DNA of 64,000 nt from contig CAZZIU010000010.1 of NCBI GenBank assembly GCA_964654545.1, forward strand, positions 14,037 to 78,036. Direction: 5' to 3'. Origin of the DNA: an uncultured bacterium (GTDB lineage: Bacteria; Fidelibacterota; Marinisomatia; Marinisomatales; JABMOV01). The translations under genes were made by a program, and so were the position numbers. Under the pieces are notes generated by a model. That model saw only the letters and a list, made by a program, of their open reading frames with translations. It was not told the origin of the DNA and did no database searches. Shown piece after piece: positions 28,045 through 53,764 of this stretch (position 1 is its first letter; each line of letters begins with the position of its first letter).

Positions 28045-28836
28045 ATGAATTACCTGAGCAGCAGGAATTGACGCACCCAAAAACCGGCTGGCGACAGATT
28101 CAAACCGGGCAGGCAGATCCGTAACGTAGCATTTAAAATTGCCTTGATCTCCATCAGACCCCAAACGTTTATTAGTCAATAAACGGGTGGTGCTGGCGGC
28201 AACTTCGGAAGCTGAATCCACCAATACGGTGCCATTCTTAACAAAGGATTGGAGGGCAGGTTTCAGCAATGGATAATGCGTACATCCCAGAACCAAGGTA
28301 TCAATGGAAGAGGCATCAATGGGTTGTATGTATTCTTTAATAATTTGCTCAACGATTGGGCCATCCAGCCAACCTTCTTCCACGAGCGGCACAAAAAGAG
28401 GGCAAGGTCTGGCAGAAATCACCAAATCAGGTCGAGCATATAGCAACCCGTTTTGATACGCATTGGAGGCGATTGTGGCTATCGTTCCAATCACACCCAC
28501 ATGGCCATTTTTTGTAGATTTTAGTGCCGCCGAGACACCCGGTTTGATCACGCCAAGTATTGGAACGTCAAACTGCGCATGTAAATATTTTAATGCCAGC
28601 GCCGATGCAGTATTACACGCCACGACGATAAGTTTCGCATCTTGGCTGAGTAAGAATTCTGTTATTTGTCGCGAATATTCCTGAACGGTCTCTGCGCTTT
28701 TATTTCCATAAGGAACCCGGGCAGTGTCTCCCACATAAACGATTGATTCTCCGGGAAGTGCCTCACGAATGGCACGAACCACTGTTAATCCACCGAGTCC
28801 TGAGTCGAAAATACCTATGGGGCGGAAATCGGGCAT
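28039..28836 (-). CDS. murI: Glutamate racemase
   Basis: GIFDSGLGGLTV, VACNTAS, LGCTHYP. Confidence 0.97.
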   Translation of the reverse strand: MPDFRPIGIFDSGLGGLTVVRAIREALPGESIVYVGDTARVPYGNKSAETVQEYSRQITEFLLSQDAKLIVVACNTASALALKYLHAQFDVPILGVIKPGVSAALKSTKNGHVGVIGTIATIASNAYQNGLLYARPDLVISARPCPLFVPLVEEGWLDGPIVEQIIKEYIQPIDASSIDTLVLGCTHYPLLKPALQSFVKNGTVLVDSASEVAASTTRLLTNKRLGSDGDQGNFKCYVTDLPARFESVASRFLGASIPAAQVIHL

Positions 28837-30320
28837 TATCCTTCGGCCAAAACCTGTTCCCGGGTATCTTTAAAATTGATAATTGCGGTGTAAATGCTTT
28901 CTGCAATTTTTTGACGGTGTGACGATTTTTTCAGGTTTCGCTCTTCCGTTGGATTCGAGAGAAACCCTGCTTCAACCAAAACGTTCGGCATGCTGGCGCC
29001 AATCAAGACATAAAACCCGGCCTGCTTTACACCGCGGTTTTTTGAATCAACTCTTTTATCCAGCTCAGTTTGGATGATTGCAGCAAGATCTTCGCTTTCT
29101 TTCATAAACATGGATTGCGCCATGGTGGCCATTATGAGATTTGCGCCTGAAAGTTCTGCGTAAGGATCTTCATTGCGATCCTCAAGTCGAATAACCCCAT
29201 TTTCCCTTGATGCCACTTCGATTGCATCATCCGTTTTTCCGGGTCGAAGAAGATACGTTTCAAAACCCTTGGCATTGCGATTTGGGTTGGAATTCACGTG
29301 GACTGACAGAAAGATTTTACCATTGCTCTCATTCGCAATTTTAGTTCGTTTCCAAAGCGGGATAAACACATCTTCATCCCGTGTATATACCACTTTAATA
29401 TTGGTGTTTTTTTCCAGCAATAAGCCAAGCCGTTTTGTGATATCCAACGTAACATCTTTTTCCTTGGTCCCATACTTACCAACCGTGCCGCCATCTTTTC
29501 CACCATGCCCCGCATCGAGGACGATAGTATCCAATCGCCAGCGATCTTTAACGTCCTTGATACGGTTCGCGCTTTTAGATAATGGCGTGCGTAACGTAAT
29601 AACAAGTTCACTTGGATCTGAATTCTGATAAAATTCATGGCCTTCAATCTCTGATCGTAACTGAAAAGCCAATTGGACAGATTCGTCCATTTGATCTGCA
29701 GAAATCCGACGGACAACCCCACGGGTTGTGGAACGTTTCACTGCTATTGTGTCAACAAAGCCACCCTTCACGGTGACATAAAACCAGCCGTTATTATGTT
29801 TAAATGTGCTGATATTTCTTTCGTCGAACACCTCACGAGTTTGAATCCGAAGGATCGTCCCATTCGCTTTTTCATCAATGTCAATACCCGTAATGTTAAA
29901 TGTCAGGAGGTCAATATCAAGAATATGTCTGTCACCATCATAAACAATCCCTGGCATTATGGTATTGCGAATGATATGGAAAAATGCTTCGGCTGGTAAA
30001 AAAATGTCGTCTTTTTGTAATATTGATGGCACGGGCATTTGATAAACCTGCTCCCCGACCATGACAAAGCTGGTACCGGCAGAGAGCTTAATGCGGTGTT
30101 CTCCCACATACAGCACCATTTTTTGTCGATCAGCATTGTAGTACGGTTTGTGGGCTGTGATAATATCGGAAAATCCGCGTGCAGAAATATAGGTACTCGA
30201 TACCCCGGCAAGCGTATGGAGTTCAGTTGTTGATTGATCCAACCGATTTATCACCTGAACGGGAGAGGCCATGACGGCTCCCGTAATAAGAAGAAATAGA
30301 ATTGCTAATCGCTTTATCAT
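28836..30320 (-). CDS. N-acetylmuramoyl-L-alanine amidase (Amidase_3) with N-terminal AMIN-like domains
   Basis: VLDAGHGGKDGG, FLSVHVNS, VLVEAGFLSN. Start placed at MIKRLAILF (30320) from the signal peptide. Confidence 0.9.
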   Translation of the reverse strand: MIKRLAILFLLITGAVMASPVQVINRLDQSTTELHTLAGVSSTYISARGFSDIITAHKPYYNADRQKMVLYVGEHRIKLSAGTSFVMVGEQVYQMPVPSILQKDDIFLPAEAFFHIIRNTIMPGIVYDGDRHILDIDLLTFNITGIDIDEKANGTILRIQTREVFDERNISTFKHNNGWFYVTVKGGFVDTIAVKRSTTRGVVRRISADQMDESVQLAFQLRSEIEGHEFYQNSDPSELVITLRTPLSKSANRIKDVKDRWRLDTIVLDAGHGGKDGGTVGKYGTKEKDVTLDITKRLGLLLEKNTNIKVVYTRDEDVFIPLWKRTKIANESNGKIFLSVHVNSNPNRNAKGFETYLLRPGKTDDAIEVASRENGVIRLEDRNEDPYAELSGANLIMATMAQSMFMKESEDLAAIIQTELDKRVDSKNRGVKQAGFYVLIGASMPNVLVEAGFLSNPTEERNLKKSSHRQKIAESIYTAIINFKDTREQVLAEG

Positions 30321-30529
30321 GAGGGTGAAAATAGACGGTGCGGAGCAACCCCCGCAATGATTTTCCTGCCTTGGTTTTACATCTTTAAAATTCATCAGTA
30401 ATTCTAAAATTTACCTTTGATAGACACAATGGTGTAGTTTATTAAAACAAAAAACCGATAAATTTTGAGAAGAGATTTCTCAATTATTCCAACTGTATAA
30501 TCAAAAAGCCATAAACATCGGGGGACAGA

Positions 30530-45564: not shown

Positions 45565-45930
45565 TCAAGAAAAGGACTTCGGTAAATTGATAATTGTGCC
45601 GCCATTTTTCAACACTTCTTCTCGAACGATTATTTCAAGTTCCTTCAGTTCTCGCAGTATAGAATCTGGATGCTCATCATTTTTGTATTCCAATTCGGAT
45701 ACTATTTCAAAGGAAAAATTGTCTTCGCCTGATTCCATCCATGATTTTTGAAATTCCTTGTTCGGAAAACTTCCAAAATTGAGCTGAAATTTTTGACGAT
45801 TCCACAACGAGTTAATGTCCGTACTGCAACCAATAAAAACATGGTTGTTGGCAACATTACGGATTTGAAATACTCCTCGTACAGGTTTCATACGCAAATA
45901 TTCTTTTTTTAATTCTTTTTTAGTTTTCAT
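45565..45930 (-). CDS. Small GIY-YIG family protein (LuxR-associated-like subgroup)
   Basis: GVFQIRN...VFIG, NKEFQKSW..GEDNFSFEI. Confidence 0.75.
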   Translation of the reverse strand: MKTKKELKKEYLRMKPVRGVFQIRNVANNHVFIGCSTDINSLWNRQKFQLNFGSFPNKEFQKSWMESGEDNFSFEIVSELEYKNDEHPDSILRELKELEIIVREEVLKNGGTIINLPKSFS

Positions 45931-46195
45931 GGGTCACAGGTATTTGTGAAATTTTTCCGGACCACTTCATTTTCATATAAAGATCGCCTCGTTTTAGCTC
46001 ATCAAGCATTTGTGCCAAACGTTTCTGCTTGGTTTCTTCGCGCTTTGCTCTCGTTATCCAACCGATATAATCATTTTGTTGATATGGCGGTCGAGAATGG
46101 TAAGCTTTCATGAGATGGCCAGCCTCAAGTTTCTCTTTGACAAACGCAGGCATAGGATAAGTTGAGCGCTTCAGTGATCTAAATTTTTTCACCAT
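45920..46195 (-). CDS. YdeI/OmpD-associated (bacteriocin-protection) family protein
   Basis: YHSRPPYQQNDYIGWITRAKREETKQKRLAQMLDEL; start placed at MVKKF. Confidence 0.8.
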   Translation of the reverse strand: MVKKFRSLKRSTYPMPAFVKEKLEAGHLMKAYHSRPPYQQNDYIGWITRAKREETKQKRLAQMLDELKRGDLYMKMKWSGKISQIPVTHEN

Positions 46196-46310
46196 ATATT
46201 TTTCCGAAATAATGGATGGTGAAGTTAACTGCATTTTCTATAACGGGACGAATTGAATAAGACGGGTTTGTCTTACAAATGGAAACTTCCATTATATCTA
46301 TCTAATTTGA

Positions 46311-47955
<1,645 letters not shown>

Positions 47956-47959
<4 letters not shown>

Positions 47960-48531
47960 AAACCCAGCCGATAAAAGACTTCGTCTCCACCACCAAGCTT
48001 AGATTTACAAATTAATTCCACATTAGAAGGTTGTTTTTTAAAATCAAAATACAGTTCCGCCGTGATGGACTGTTTTGGAGCAATTATAGCCATATCCTGG
48101 TATTTCCCTTTAAAAGGATTTAGCTCTCCCTTATTTTCATTTTTGTCAGTGATTTTAGTCATCATCATCGCTGAGAAGTCAAAAGATTTTGAGCGTTGAT
48201 TTGTAATTTTTACTTTTACAGCCACCTGTTTATCCACAATCCGGGCAGAAAGAACATTGTATTTTATTTGATCGGCAAATTGATCCGTACCCACCGGTAA
48301 AGCAACTCTCGGATCCTCAAACGCCGATACCGGAATGTAGACATCGACGGTCGTTTTAATATACTGTTTGGATTTATCTAGCTTTGTTTTGGTTACGACA
48401 ATTCCTGCATCAAGATTTCCAATAGGTTTATCATTGGTGGGGTTAAGGTAAACGGGAGTGGACTCTATCAATTTGGTCGATTGTGAAAACAATAATCCGC
48501 ATGATAGCAGAATAAAGATTGCATAACGCAT
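47956..48531 (-). CDS. Secreted hypothetical protein; SH3-like N-half and DUF4352/Ig-like C-half (inferred)
   Basis: Signal peptide; beta-rich; VAVKVKITN...APKQSITAELYF; 5 nt downstream of motB. Confidence 0.5.
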
Positions 48532-48536
48532 ATGGA

Positions 48537-49259
48537 TTACCCTGTGAGTGTCTTGGTTTTGATAAAGGCGTCCAGATATATTTCAACCCGCCTGTTTTTC
48601 GCCCGAGCTTCCTGAAGGTCAATAGGGTTCATACCAACTTCGTTCATGGAGATTACAGGACGAAATTCACCGTATCCCATGGCGGAAAATTTTTCTTCAG
48701 GTATTTGCGAATATTCACTTAAAAGTTTAACAATATTCAGAGCTCTGGCTGTTGATAAATCCCAGTTGGATTCAAATCTTGCAGATGTGGGTAGAGCCAA
48801 ATCATCTGTATGCCCCTCACATCGAATCTCCACATTCAGATACCCACCCCGTTTTTTAATAGCGTCCAGCAAGTTGCGGTACCGCGGATCATCATCGACG
48901 TTTAGAACCTTTGACACACGGATAATGCTACCGATTTGGCGTAAGAGAGGGTGGACTATTTGACGGACATCCGCTTCCATGGAGCCGAATAATTCACCAC
49001 TTGCCATGGTAATCTTTACGCCCTTTGTGACGCGCTGCACTGACACGTAGGAAGATTCGATATCCTGTAGCTCTTCGTATGTTTCATCCAATAGCATATT
49101 GATGACACGGTCGATATGTTTTTCCGCGTCATTTAATATGACAAGTAAGAGAATAAAGAAGGTTAATAATAAAGTAACTAAATCAGCATAGGTGACAGCC
49201 CAAGCCGTGCTTTTGGCCTTCGCTTCCGAGACGGAAACGCCGTATTTTCTTCCAGCCAC
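48537..49259 (-). CDS. motB: Stator B subunit (MotB/PomB/MotS type) with OmpA-like peptidoglycan-binding domain
   Basis: GTG start; WAVTYADLVTLLLTFFILL, EGHTDD, SNWDLSTARA, GYGEFRP, NRRVEI. Confidence 0.88.
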   Translation of the reverse strand: MAGRKYGVSVSEAKAKSTAWAVTYADLVTLLLTFFILLLVILNDAEKHIDRVINMLLDETYEELQDIESSYVSVQRVTKGVKITMASGELFGSMEADVRQIVHPLLRQIGSIIRVSKVLNVDDDPRYRNLLDAIKKRGGYLNVEIRCEGHTDDLALPTSARFESNWDLSTARALNIVKLLSEYSQIPEEKFSAMGYGEFRPVISMNEVGMNPIDLQEARAKNRRVEIYLDAFIKTKTLTG

Positions 49260-49262
49260 GGA

Positions 49263-50081
49263 TTATTCTCTCTTGCGACGCATGCTGGCAGGAACGAAGG
49301 TCATTAATTTCTCGCGAATCAGAATCGGATGTTCTTTAGCATGAATGCTTATAATTCCTTCAACCATAATGGTTTTAAGCATTAATTCATCTTCAGATTT
49401 TCGCTTTAATTTTCCTCCAATAGGAAGAAAGACCAGGTTGGAAAACAATACGCCGTAGAAGGTGGTTACCAGTGCCAGACCCATACCGCCCAAAAGTTCG
49501 GCAAATTTTGCCGCCACGTCAAAGTCAATTGAATCGACAGAACCGCCATTTCCGCCGGAAAATTTATTCATCATGACGATCAAGCCCATCACAGTTCCCA
49601 GCATCCCAAATGCAGGTGCATAGGCGCCCATGTAAAAAAAGATTTCCTGGCCGATGTTATGCCGCCGTTCTATGTTGCTTAGTTCAAGATTGAGAAAAGT
49701 TCGCAGCCGGCCCGCATCCCGTTCATTTATTGCCAGTTCGATACCGCTGCGTAAAAATTTATTATCAATTTTTTCCAGATCCGCTTCCAGTGACATGATC
49801 CCCGATTTTCTGGCTTTTTCAGCCTTTTCAACAAGGGTGTCGATCTCTTTTGAATAACTGTGACTCTCGTAAATGAAAGCGTTTTTTAAAATACCAAAGA
49901 TACCAAGAACATTCCGCAGGGGGTAATTAACAATGGTTGCAGCCAATGTTCCACCAAATACTACCAGAATAGAGTTCAGGTTGAAAAACCAATAAAGATC
50001 ACCATGTCCTCGAATAACCCCAACCGCAATTATACCTAAACCTGCCAATAAACCTAGAGCGGTTCCAAAATCCATAACCAA
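49263..50081 (-). CDS. motA: Stator A subunit (MotA/PomA/MotP type)
   Basis: VFGGTLAAT, ARKSGIMSLE, YAPAFGMLGTVMGL, ALVTTFYG, EHPILIREKL. Confidence 0.88.
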   Translation of the reverse strand: MVMDFGTALGLLAGLGIIAVGVIRGHGDLYWFFNLNSILVVFGGTLAATIVNYPLRNVLGIFGILKNAFIYESHSYSKEIDTLVEKAEKARKSGIMSLEADLEKIDNKFLRSGIELAINERDAGRLRTFLNLELSNIERRHNIGQEIFFYMGAYAPAFGMLGTVMGLIVMMNKFSGGNGGSVDSIDFDVAAKFAELLGGMGLALVTTFYGVLFSNLVFLPIGGKLKRKSEDELMLKTIMVEGIISIHAKEHPILIREKLMTFVPASMRRKRE

Positions 50082-50156
50082 TCCCTCGCAATAATGTTAC
50101 CACGTAAATTAGGGTGATTAAAAACCGAACTTCAAGAACTCTTCATTGCGTTAAGT

Positions 50157-51425
50157 ATGGCAAAATTTACTACTTTGGATGATCGACTTACCTATCTCTA
50201 TGCTCTCGAAAGAAAAGGTATAAAGGTGGGTTTAAAGCATACTGAGGATTTGCTGGCTCGGTGCGGTAATCCACACCATGAATTTCCCAGTATTCATATT
50301 GCCGGCACCAACGGAAAAGGATCAACGGCGGCGGTAGTCCATGCGATTTTGGTAGAATCGGGCTACAAAGTAGGATTATATACGTCGCCCCATCTGGTTC
50401 AATTCAATGAGCGTGTTCGGATCAATGGTAAACCGATTTCAGATGAAGATATCGTTCAGTTTGTTGATCGATATAATCAGGATTTTGATGCGATAAATTC
50501 AACATTTTTTGAAACAACCACTGCACTCGCATTTTGGTATTTTGCGAAACAGAAAGTAGATGTCGCAGTGATTGAAACAGGCTTGGGCGGTCGTCTGGAT
50601 TCCACCAATGTACTTGTTCCTGAAATTACTGTAATTACGCCAATTGATTTAGACCATGGGCACATATTGGGCAATACAATACTGGAAATTGCTAAAGAAA
50701 AGGCAGGCATTATTAAACCTTCCATACCGCTGATACTCGCCCCACAACCCATCGCAGCAAAAGATGTAATTGAAAAGGTCGCGCATGAAAAAAATGCACG
50801 CTTGTACAATCCTGACCCACCTTACGATATTAAAATTTCTGCAATCGGCACCCAATTCAAATGGCATACCGATTTGTTTAATTTGCCTCTAATTGGTTTT
50901 CATCAGGCCACTAATACCGTTTTAGGAATGCAAACGGCAATGGTATTTGATAGTTCAATTTCCATTGACAAAATTCAGAGTGGACTAAGAAACATTCGTT
51001 GGCCAGGACGATTACAAATTGTTGGGGAAGACCCAATGTTTATGTACGATGTTGCACATAATGGACACGGGTTAAACAGTCTTCTGCAATCGCTAAAACA
51101 TTTTAGTAATAAAAGACCGGTTGGCATAATGGCGCTAAAAGAAGACAAGGAAATCTCTGGTATAGCATCTCTATTGAAGAATCAGTTTAGCACCCTGATG
51201 GTAACAACCGAACCCAACATGGGTTTAATGGAAACGAAAGAACTTAAACGCACATTGGAGAAACACAATGTTATTTGTGAGGAGTCAAAAAGCATCAGGG
51301 ATGCGGTGCGCAAAGCCAAAGATTTATTGGAAGAAAGCCAAATGGGATTAATTTTTGGCAGCCACTATATTGGAAAAGCAGTTTTTGAAGTATTTGATTT
51401 TTCCTTTGACACAGGAGCGATTTGA
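50157..51425 (+). CDS. folC: Folylpolyglutamate synthase/dihydrofolate synthase
   Basis: HIAGTNGKGST, YTSPHL, ETGLGGRLDSTNV, WPGRL, DVAHN. Confidence 0.96.
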   Translation: MAKFTTLDDRLTYLYALERKGIKVGLKHTEDLLARCGNPHHEFPSIHIAGTNGKGSTAAVVHAILVESGYKVGLYTSPHLVQFNERVRINGKPISDEDIVQFVDRYNQDFDAINSTFFETTTALAFWYFAKQKVDVAVIETGLGGRLDSTNVLVPEITVITPIDLDHGHILGNTILEIAKEKAGIIKPSIPLILAPQPIAAKDVIEKVAHEKNARLYNPDPPYDIKISAIGTQFKWHTDLFNLPLIGFHQATNTVLGMQTAMVFDSSISIDKIQSGLRNIRWPGRLQIVGEDPMFMYDVAHNGHGLNSLLQSLKHFSNKRPVGIMALKEDKEISGIASLLKNQFSTLMVTTEPNMGLMETKELKRTLEKHNVICEESKSIRDAVRKAKDLLEESQMGLIFGSHYIGKAVFEVFDFSFDTGAI

Positions 51426-52813: not shown

Positions 52814-53764
52814 ATGGAAGATGAAAGAATAATAGTACCGTCTGTCACGGTCAAACTGGTTACGGATAAGCCAGTAAAGAAAACTCCCTACCAGGTAAAA
52901 GGAGTGTTCATGAAGCATTTTCCCGATGAAGAAATCGTACCAATGTTGGACGGCAGGTATCGGGAAAAATTTCTTTATCCGCGGGTTCAGGTGAAAATAT
53001 TAAATGAACAAATTTATATCCTGGGTTTGAATGAAGGCGTTGATCCAGTTTTATCATTAGTAGAAAAATTTGATTTTCTGGATTTTGGGAATATTACATT
53101 TCAGGTTCTTGGTGCCGATGTAGACAAATATGACAATCGCTTTCGCCCAACAAATCGGTTGATTCGTTACCGGTTTATAACACCCTGGGTAGCCCTGAAT
53201 CAGATCACCGGGAGCCGCTATCGGTTTTTGAATAATGCAGAACGAGCCGTTTTCCTCAATCGTTTACTTGGACAAAATATTGTATTCCTGGCGCGCGAGA
53301 TGGGAATGGATATTGAAAAGAAGATTTATACCAAAACGTCGCTCACGTCTCTTTTCCCAAAACCGGTGGATGAGCACAATTGGGGTGCTTTTACAGGTGA
53401 ATTCAGAACCAATTTTATATTGCCAAACTATATCGGTGTTGGAAACGGAATTACCCGTGGTTATGGTACAATCTATGGTTTATTCAATCCGGAAATGTTC
53501 CAATTCGATGAGGGTAATGTTGAGCCGGAAGAACTGGAAGATGCAGGCGTTGAAGAAATATCAAGCGATGACACTGAGTTGGAGGCGGTGGATGTAGCCG
53601 ATGTGCCTCAGCCGCGAAAACGGAGACCGGCAGAAAAAAAACCTGGTCGTGGACGTCGTAAAGTTCTATCAGAGGAATTTGATATTGAAGAGGATGAGGA
53701 AGAAATAGGCGAAGACGATCGTTTCAATCGGCCCGAGTTTCATAAAAAACAGCATGATCTGTAG
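52814..53764 (+). CDS. Stand-alone Cas6b-like RAMP protein with charged C-terminal tail
   Basis: YPRVQVK, YRFITPWVALN, FTGEFRTNFILPNYIGVGNGITRGYGTI (G-rich loop); ~90-aa acidic/basic tail. Confidence 0.8.
   Translation: MEDERIIVPSVTVKLVTDKPVKKTPYQVKGVFMKHFPDEEIVPMLDGRYREKFLYPRVQVKILNEQIYILGLNEGVDPVLSLVEKFDFLDFGNITFQVLGADVDKYDNRFRPTNRLIRYRFITPWVALNQITGSRYRFLNNAERAVFLNRLLGQNIVFLAREMGMDIEKKIYTKTSLTSLFPKPVDEHNWGAFTGEFRTNFILPNYIGVGNGITRGYGTIYGLFNPEMFQFDEGNVEPEELEDAGVEEISSDDTELEAVDVADVPQPRKRRPAEKKPGRGRRKVLSEEFDIEEDEEEIGEDDRFNRPEFHKKQHDL

Follow-up and report, generated by a model that had tools for sequence, protein, structure and literature searches.

The window analysed here, the whole stretch of 64,000 nucleotides (64 kb) from contig CAZZIU010000010.1, carries three closely spaced genes, named motA1, motB1 and X in the following, which are a genuine stator operon with a gene for a secreted protein at its end (Table 1). 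The operon is flanked by ftsB on one side and by the divergently oriented folC on the other, as judged from the Pfam matches to FtsB/DivIC and FolC. The spacing was read off the sequence: the stop codon of motA1 is separated by 3 nucleotides from the GTG start of motB1, the stop codon of motB1 by 5 nucleotides from the ATG of X, and the 3' end of X overlaps the stop codon of the convergent ftsB by 4 nucleotides. In relatives, motB and X overlap by 1-4 nucleotides. An earlier sequence-only reading of the window had described motA, motB and a 191-residue secreted gene with these gaps between ftsB and folC, which is confirmed by the coordinates and by Pfam. The likely true start of motA1 is the ATG at position 50075, giving the 270-residue form found in the databases. 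A scan for sigma-70 consensus promoters and for terminators returned nothing exceeding the shuffled background, so no promoter was assigned, and a search of public sequencing runs for RNA evidence of co-transcription yielded a single run with the sequence, which was DNA. The host belongs to the Marinimicrobia (also known as Neomarinimicrobiota, Fidelibacterota, SAR406 or Marinisomatota), the phylum given for those homologs of X that carry a source name and for the named MotA homologs with the highest scores; one label among these homologs reads 'FCB group'. The same sequence is present on a JGI contig from a microbial mat.

The relationship of MotA1 and MotB1 to known stators was analysed with profile and structure databases. 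MotA1 matched the Pfam family MotA_ExbB (PF01618) with an E value of 2.5e-23. Its best NCBIfam models were MotP, MotA and PomA, with full-length alignments at 199-176 bits, all under the equivalog cutoffs; the best score was 199 bits against a cutoff of 394 for MotA and 100 against 300 for MotB. Therefore, MotA1B1 is a divergent branch and not an equivalog of any named stator. In the PDB, MotA1 aligned end to end with MotA1 of Paenibacillus, MotA of C. sporogenes and B. subtilis, and PomA of Vibrio (1e-32 to 4e-40), and more weakly with MotA of C. jejuni (1.6e-15). The ExbB models matched marginally (E 0.003-0.004) and only in the region of the transmembrane (TM) helices TM3-TM4. MotB1 was recognised by the Pfam families MotB_plug (E 4e-11) and OmpA (E 9e-9). 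It has one TM helix with Asp26 in YADLVTLLLTFFILL, a plug segment and a C-terminal OmpA-like peptidoglycan-binding domain, and its matches in the PDB were MotB of C. sporogenes and B. subtilis, MotS and PomB.

In the AlphaFold monomer of MotA1, helices were predicted at residues 59-66, 74-91, 93-102 and 106-117, followed by a continuous helix 121-172, which corresponds to an unbroken TM3. The predicted local distance difference test score (pLDDT) was 75-86 in this region and only 63 for the whole model. With this low overall confidence, the predicted cytoplasmic domain appears to match the 'TGI4' flagellar type of a recent stator classification (PMC12505986). The 'generic ion transporters' of the same work, ExbBD, TolQR and others, have a condensed cytoplasmic domain, a kinked TM3 and a B subunit without plug or OmpA-like domain (PMC12505986).

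Residue conservation was followed in 76 MotA1 orthologs that were aligned with PomA. The PomA reference sequence is consistent with the published numbering used here. The charges that contact the rotor, equivalent to R88, K89 and E96 of PomA (R90 and E98 in E. coli), were kept as Arg in 76/76, Lys in 75/76 and Glu in 75/76 orthologs, and the conserved prolines P151 and P199 were each found in all 76. A peculiarity of MotA1 is an insertion of about 16 residues in the periplasmic loop between TM3 and TM4 (GGNGGSVDSIDFDVAAKF), which is GG-rich and continues into a FDVAxKFAELL helix. Every MotA1 ortholog has it, also in lineages that lack X, and it is missing from PomA and from the solved stators whose alignments were compared.

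The ion specificity of MotA1B1 can be predicted from its pore residues. In PomA, the threonines T158, T185 and T186 form the Na+ site; the H+ stators that Hu et al. included in their comparison have alanines in place of T158 and T185 (PMC10374538). The sequence-only reading had pointed to PomA-type threonines in the motifs GMLGT and LVTTFYG of MotA. Both motifs are present in MotA1, and the three positions read T/T/T in 76/76 orthologs. A second indicator is the position in the middle of the B-subunit TM helix (V43 of E. coli MotB), where H+ stators have Val, Na+ stators Leu and one K+/Na+ stator Met (PMC3457975). The leucine reported at this place, 11 residues after the aspartate, was found in MotB1, and the orthologs had Leu in 56 and Met in 17 cases and never Val. 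As a prediction from the residue pattern, a coupling of MotA1B1 to Na+ is probable and well founded, and it would fit the marine sodium economy. The window also encodes a membrane pyrophosphatase, which had been taken for a probable Na+ pyrophosphatase. The enzyme is real, but its Na+ label is ambiguous, since besides the NCBIfam model 'sodium-translocating pyrophosphatase' (1131 against a cutoff of 1059) the cutoff of the H+ V-PPase model was passed as well. The pyrophosphatase therefore adds little to the sodium argument.

To describe the distribution of the operon, homologs and gene neighbourhoods were collected. The MotA1 family comprises more than 4,400 clusters at E<1e-20. A scan with one genome per GTDB species returned 80 loci, and every record among them that names a phylum gives Marinimicrobia; many say only 'uncultured bacterium'. 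When the window proteins were searched with phmmer against all open reading frames (ORFs) of 87 loci, MotA was found in 85, MotB in 81, and FtsB and Eno in 75 each.

The third gene was less constant. X follows motB in about 54 of about 74 species, in about 50 of them as a protein of 190-238 residues and in 4 as a chain of 689-865 residues, and it is absent in about 18, where motB abuts ftsB. The long chains contain Big_9, cadherin-like and PKD Ig repeats. The linkage is thus conserved in the relatives, as the sequence-only reading had proposed to examine. Because it is not universal, X is an accessory component; the suggestion that it acts as the effector or anchor of the stator survives with respect to its link to motB in most species, but not for a core effector, given the species that lack or replace it.

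The chain of X starts with a Sec signal peptide, followed by a small N-terminal beta domain (residues about 24-62) and a C-terminal DUF4352 Ig-like beta sandwich (about 83-190). Pfam DUF4352 (PF11611) was matched with 32.3 bits at a gathering cutoff of 25.9, and 8 of 11 homologs matched it as well. The AlphaFold model (pLDDT 82.6) showed a four-strand beta domain at 24-62 and the sandwich at 83-190. The top Foldseek matches were YjhA of B. subtilis (3cfu, E 3.7e-5), CD630_09570, YcdA and YxkC, so the structural neighbours are uncharacterised extracytoplasmic DUF4352-type proteins of Bacillus and Clostridium. The Ig-like part of the earlier 'SH3/Ig-like' label was upheld by Pfam and Foldseek, but its SH3 part found no profile support: no SH3 family matched any of the 11 homologs even at E<=1, and the top 50 Foldseek entries all aligned to the sandwich, with no SH3-domain entry among them. 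An SH3-like fold of the modelled N-terminal four-strand domain is possible, with the label unproven. X was also considered as a lipoprotein, which was ruled out because the cysteine of the signal peptide is not conserved. MotX contains Sel1 repeats and MotY an OmpA-like domain; neither these nor a FlgT fold were detected in X by Pfam and NCBIfam. Twelve homologous clusters of X were found, the 2 with source names both being from Marinimicrobia/Fidelibacterota, and the homolog alignment contained 39 invariant columns.

These data also bear on the idea that X is a passenger, a periplasmic Ig-like protein that just happens to be encoded between motB and ftsB, without any functional connection to the stator. 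The lineages without X and the 4 with another architecture would fit a passenger, as would the generic nature of DUF4352 proteins, extracytoplasmic modules of unknown function, and a fold unlike that of the known stator accessories. Yet in more than 50 species X is found at this place and on this strand, with gaps from -4 to about +130 nucleotides and at identities down to 43%. In addition, the long variants, which are encoded at the identical place, end in precisely the DUF4352 domain, and the 39 invariant columns also count against a passenger. We regard a passenger role as distinctly unlikely.

Since the operon encodes a stator, flagellar and chemotaxis genes were sought in the window. No flagellar or chemotaxis domain came up in the 64 kb when 30 more ORFs were scanned with Pfam, when the Pfam lists of collinear relatives (38-58 kb) were inspected, or when phmmer was run with FliG, a FliF-like protein, MotA2 and MotB2 (see below); for a small number of ORFs, located at about 36-42 kb and 61.7-64 kb, the judgement was based on the ORF list only. 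This upholds the earlier observation that the window has no such gene. At the level of the phylum, the only cultured member is non-motile (PMC11652737). A published table scored 962 metagenome-assembled genomes (MAGs) for fliG, fliM, fliN and cheA/B/R (PMC10359470). In the accessible part of this table, the 8 Marinisomatota MAG rows, which are 53-93% complete, have fliM=0, fliN(Y)=0 and che=0 and are called non-motile, with fliG=1 in 5 of the 8 (PMC10359470). Marinimicrobia thus seem to be non-flagellated, and a complete flagellar system elsewhere, the finding that would speak against an orphan stator, did not emerge from the phylum-level evidence, namely the accessible survey rows, the isolate and the gene neighbourhoods.

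The lone fliG entries could have been cross-matches of MgtE, as an archaeal MAG had one too. This was rejected because true three-domain FliGs were found in Marinimicrobia and because a fliG of the Marinimicrobia type lies on a 1.2-kb contig (P0436, HJO01973.1) that is binned as a Woesearchaeota archaeon. A similar mis-binning may be behind the fliG=1 of a Woesearchaeales MAG in the oxygen-deficient zone table. MgtE-like ORFs of about 456 residues gave only weak matches.

At locus L044, 6-10 kb upstream of motA1B1, a second motA (cut by the edge of the locus), a second motB, a gene for a FliF-like protein (YscJ_FliF_C) and a gene for a 311-residue FliG with N, M and C domains all present were identified. 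MotA2 and MotA1 are paralogs with 33% identity that have the rotor-contact and pore motifs in common; MotA2 also carries the T/T/T pattern of the Na+ site and a shorter version of the TM3-TM4 loop insertion. The FliG of this type was found in 1,757 clusters at E<=1e-10. Further FliG clusters of about 310 residues showed 37-46% identity, and the named ones come from Marinimicrobia or the FCB group, except for single Nitrospinae and Woesearchaeota labels. The module has the same order in 7 loci from pelagic and hydrothermal lineages: a CarboxypepD_reg protein or an unknown protein of about 330 residues, 1-3 TPR proteins, MotA2, MotB2, the FliF-like protein and FliG. It extends across L088-L091 and into the divergent lineages L092-L094, including a hydrothermal MAG. 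Within 10 kb of fliF-fliG, no other flagellar genes, including fliE, fliH, fliI and fliJ, were found in the 7 loci. The second stator paralog, the FliF-like protein and FliG are therefore widespread in the phylum. The description of MotA1B1 as an orphan holds in that the surveyed MAGs (in the accessible rows) lack fliM, fliN and che and the isolate is non-motile, but not with regard to the FliF-like protein, FliG and the second stator that many members possess.

Compared with the FliG of T. maritima, the FliM-binding motif EHPQ..R reads EEPP..E, and the charges of the torque helix are largely kept. At the level of these residues, the decayed FliM motif together with the kept torque charges would fit a FliG that still meets a stator and no longer FliM. 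In the FliF-like protein, two TM segments were seen along with a single short stretch similar to FliF and an extended, charged coiled-coil region; a sequence search against the PDB gave no match to any solved FliF. Its C-terminal tail (..TSTIVKEWLEQ) resembles the FliG-binding helix of FliF. Beyond these proteins, many unnamed proteins of 600-700 residues (P0288, P0289, P0291, P0298 and others) carry a FliG-like C-terminal half with 27-31% identity on an N-terminal part of about 300-400 residues; they could be FliF-FliG-type fusions or another FliG-domain family.

We then considered whether MotA1B1 might be an ordinary stator, perhaps the second one, of a complete flagellum encoded elsewhere, with X in the role of MotX, MotY or MotC. 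Its flagellar-type sequence with all functional residues present would suit such a function, the view was limited to 64 kb of the genome, and one paper on mercury reports KEGG 'flagellar assembly' genes in Marinimicrobia MAGs. The KEGG call is explained by motA, motB, fliF and fliG, which alone account for it. Against a flagellum stand the lack of fliM, fliN and cheA/B/R in all 8 accessible Marinisomatota rows, the missing flagellar neighbours of fliF-fliG in 7 loci of distinct lineages, the decayed FliM-binding motif, the divergence of the FliF-like protein from every solved FliF and the non-motile isolate, which together make this explanation improbable. Likewise, the genes could be decaying leftovers of a lost flagellum that are functionless now. 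The apparently non-flagellated phylum is in line with this, but the ORFs are intact in 80 species, the functional residues are near-invariant at 54-93% overall identity and thousands of clusters occur in ocean metagenomes. This conservation contradicts a relic, and we consider it hardly credible.

Since MotA1 keeps the FliG-contact charges, and the FliF-like protein and FliG with a second stator are widespread, MotA1B1 is probably not rotor-less. In the reading we prefer, with a confidence that falls a little short of even, two flagellar-type stators, both probably driven by Na+, turn a reduced FliF/FliG rotor that is probably no longer part of a flagellum. MotA1B1 would be one of these two stators, and X would serve as a periplasmic adaptor that can be dispensed with. 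The OmpA-like domain of MotB1 would anchor the stator unit to the peptidoglycan, and ions, predicted to be Na+, would pass the site formed by Asp26 and the three threonines, which would turn the MotA1 pentamer round the MotB1 dimer. The Arg/Lys/Glu patch on the cytoplasmic domain of MotA1 would then push FliG. This FliG, which has no FliM-binding motif, would sit on the reduced FliF-like membrane protein that is encoded with MotA2B2 and the TPR proteins. As no rod, hook, filament, export or switch genes lie near fliF-fliG, MotA1B1 and MotA2B2 might both serve this stripped-down rotor. Through its Ig-like domain, X may serve in particular lineages as an adaptor in the periplasm, or stabilise the MotB1 domain or the surrounding wall, and some clades can do without it.

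Several points weigh against this interpretation. Within the 64-kb window, phmmer with FliG, the FliF-like protein, MotA2 and MotB2 detected no FliF/FliG module, which is presumed to lie elsewhere in this genome. The stator pair encoded beside fliF-fliG is MotA2B2 and not MotA1B1, which is tied to ftsB-eno and could have a different job. In the accessible rows of the survey, 3 of the 8 Marinisomatota MAGs lack fliG, which may reflect their incompleteness (PMC10359470). The absence of flhA, fliI, fliPQR and flg genes from the phylum is drawn from local neighbourhoods and one published fliM/fliN/che screen. MotA of C. sporogenes has identical threonines, and the Na+ prediction is a matter of residue pattern only; the contact between X and MotB1 is a proposal only.

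The tie to ftsB-eno was seen in most of the loci. The motA-motB-(X) block, convergent with ftsB-eno, is phylum-wide; in 75 of 87 loci ftsB lies next to motB or X, and the upstream flank of the block varies between folC, dnaE-dtd and rhomboid genes. In the deep-branching L081 and L086, eno, ftsB, motA and motB all lie on one strand, so the adjacency survives rearrangement. There, motB is followed by an unknown secreted protein of 616/621 residues and then by a murein amidase (Amidase_3). The amidase was considered as a link to peptidoglycan or division and was downgraded, because the ortholog in the window is 18 kb off, adjoining murI, and the 616-residue protein has no homolog in the window.

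These neighbourhoods raise the possibility that MotA1B1 is a rotor-independent envelope or division motor similar to Tol-Pal or ExbBD, in which the ion flow energises a periplasmic or peptidoglycan task at the division site and X is the output, close to the idea of the sequence-only reading. The joining to ftsB-eno while the other flank varies, its persistence through the inversion with an amidase coming after, the location of the other stator pair next to fliF-fliG and the family-specific periplasmic loop insertion of MotA1 all favour such a motor. The invariant Arg/Lys/Glu patch, however, has FliG as its sole known partner, and the cytoplasmic domain is of the full flagellar type, unlike ExbB and TolQ (PMC12505986). 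Moreover, the adjacency to the amidase is not conserved, about 18 species lack X, and a conserved position beside housekeeping genes does not have to reflect a shared function. An envelope or division motor of this kind is rather unlikely in our view, but it is the strongest of the alternatives. The proposal of a sodium-driven rotary unit repurposed for a non-flagellar envelope task agrees with the stator operon, the sodium-type residues and the apparent lack of flagella, but the unit is probably not rotor-less.

Extending the preferred reading of two stators on a reduced rotor, we offer as a bolder and doubtful, if conceivable, proposition that Marinimicrobia run a hitherto undescribed non-flagellar rotary machine. 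Its minimal rotor, a reduced FliF-like protein together with a FliG that does not depend on FliM, would be driven by two sodium stators of the flagellar type. MotA1B1-X would be the phylum-wide stator, coupled genetically to the divisome gene ftsB, and the rotation might serve an envelope, division or surface task instead of swimming.

A comparison with known systems places MotA1B1 next to PomAB of Vibrio and MotPS of Bacillus. It shares with them an A subunit with 4 TM helices and a torque domain, a B subunit with the TM aspartate, plug and OmpA-like domain, the Na+-site threonines, the leucine at the V43 position and the FliG-contact charges, and with 240 residues MotB1 has a size like MotS. 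It differs from them in scoring about half the NCBIfam equivalog cutoffs, in the loop insertion of about 16 residues, in the ftsB-eno linkage, in a host phylum that seems to be without a flagellum and in an X that is unrelated to motX, motY and flgT. Two paralogous stator pairs per genome, presumably on one FliG ring, are known from the dual-stator motors of Pseudomonas (MotAB/MotCD), B. subtilis (MotAB/MotPS) and Shewanella (PomAB/MotAB), whereas the Marinimicrobia rotor consists of a FliF-like protein and a FliG without the FliM site, and genes for C-ring, rod and filament are not evident. As a small secreted protein encoded with, or needed by, the B subunit, X recalls MotX, MotY and FlgT of Vibrio, MotC of Sinorhizobium and FliL, its role being a proposal; unlike these, it combines a DUF4352 sandwich with a small beta domain and has no sequence or fold similarity to them.

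Other 5:2 ion-driven rotary units do non-flagellar envelope work, such as ExbBD, TolQR, AglRQS, GldLM and ZorAB, which is the kind of repurposing that had been proposed for the window. In contrast to units of the ExbBD, TolQR and AglRS type, MotB1 has a plug and an OmpA-like domain, and the ExbB models reach only E of about 0.003 on MotA1. Partial flagellar sets are kept by non-motile bacteria, for example FliF, FlhA and FliI in Chlamydia and basal bodies in Buchnera, where the export apparatus is retained. Marinimicrobia similarly keep a subset of flagellar genes without swimming, but their subset is the torque pair (stators with FliG and the FliF-like protein) and apparently not the export gate.

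The full-text literature on flagella and motility in Marinimicrobia, SAR406 and Marinisomatota and the key Marinimicrobia papers were searched, and no description of these stators or of the FliF/FliG module was found; in Hawley 2017 motility is not mentioned. Automated annotation already names the proteins MotA, MotB and FliG. What is new is that a phylum apparently without flagella has a stator of the flagellar type joined to a new accessory gene, and the system of stators with FliF/FliG is a more novel lead than the operon in the window. Flagellar-type stators are thought to be dedicated to the flagellum, and a recent classification equates their clade with flagellar motility (PMC12505986). 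Here, they would be kept under strong purifying selection by an abundant marine phylum, whose members are among the most abundant bacteria of the deep ocean. Of the rotor, these bacteria retain only what receives the torque, namely FliG on the FliF-like protein, apparently without switch complex and chemotaxis genes. If true, this would be either a natural minimal motor, which could show what a stator-FliG pair is able to do when there is no axle, or a case in which the flagellar torque generator has been put to a new use outside the flagellum. For trait calling in metagenomes, matches to motA, motB, fliF and fliG in SAR406 can be read as 'flagellar assembly' or 'motile'.

Table 1. Positions of the genes and features discussed; entries without a locus handle refer to the window
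Feature	Position	Strand	Remarks
motA1 (A subunit)	49263-50081	-	272 residues from TTG; flagellar-type 5:2 stator, 4 TM helices and cytoplasmic torque domain
MotA1 TM3-TM4 loop insertion	49500-49570		residues about 173-192
motB1 (B subunit)	48537-49259	-	240 residues, GTG start
X (third gene)	47956-48531	-	191 residues, ATG start; secreted/periplasmic
ftsB (DivIC family)	47612-47959	+	Pfam DivIC E 1e-20; convergent with X
eno (enolase)	46332-47615	+	upstream of ftsB and overlapping it; ORF translation, Pfam Enolase_N/C in relatives
Divergent intergenic region motA1/folC	50082-50156	.	75 nucleotides; presumed operon promoter region
Membrane pyrophosphatase	407-2545
Amidase ortholog	28836-30395
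Two small ORFs between ABC transporter and eno	45565-46234	-
316-residue gene	52814-53764		adjoins rho
Region compared with the JGI assembly (L001)	46332-51425
FliF/FliG module	L044:1-3848
FliF/FliG module	L088:3990-10936
FliF/FliG module	L090:3897-10936
FliF/FliG module	L092:1195-9026
FliF/FliG module	L094:2392-10930
Rearranged motAB block with amidase	L081:8357-15691
Rearranged motAB block with amidase	L086:8251-15304

Three minor observations concern the surroundings of the operon. The orthologs of the 316-residue gene next to rho carry Cas6b_N/Cas6b_C in the Pfam lists of L002 and L004, where the gene is conserved. The two small ORFs between the ABC transporter and eno are absent from L002 and L004; one has a weak match to a GIY-YIG/group I intron endonuclease, the other corresponds to an OmdA-domain ORF in L001, and together they may be a small mobile insertion. 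In the JGI assembly, folC and eno are fragmented and in the window they are intact, which looks like assembly frameshifts in the public contig.

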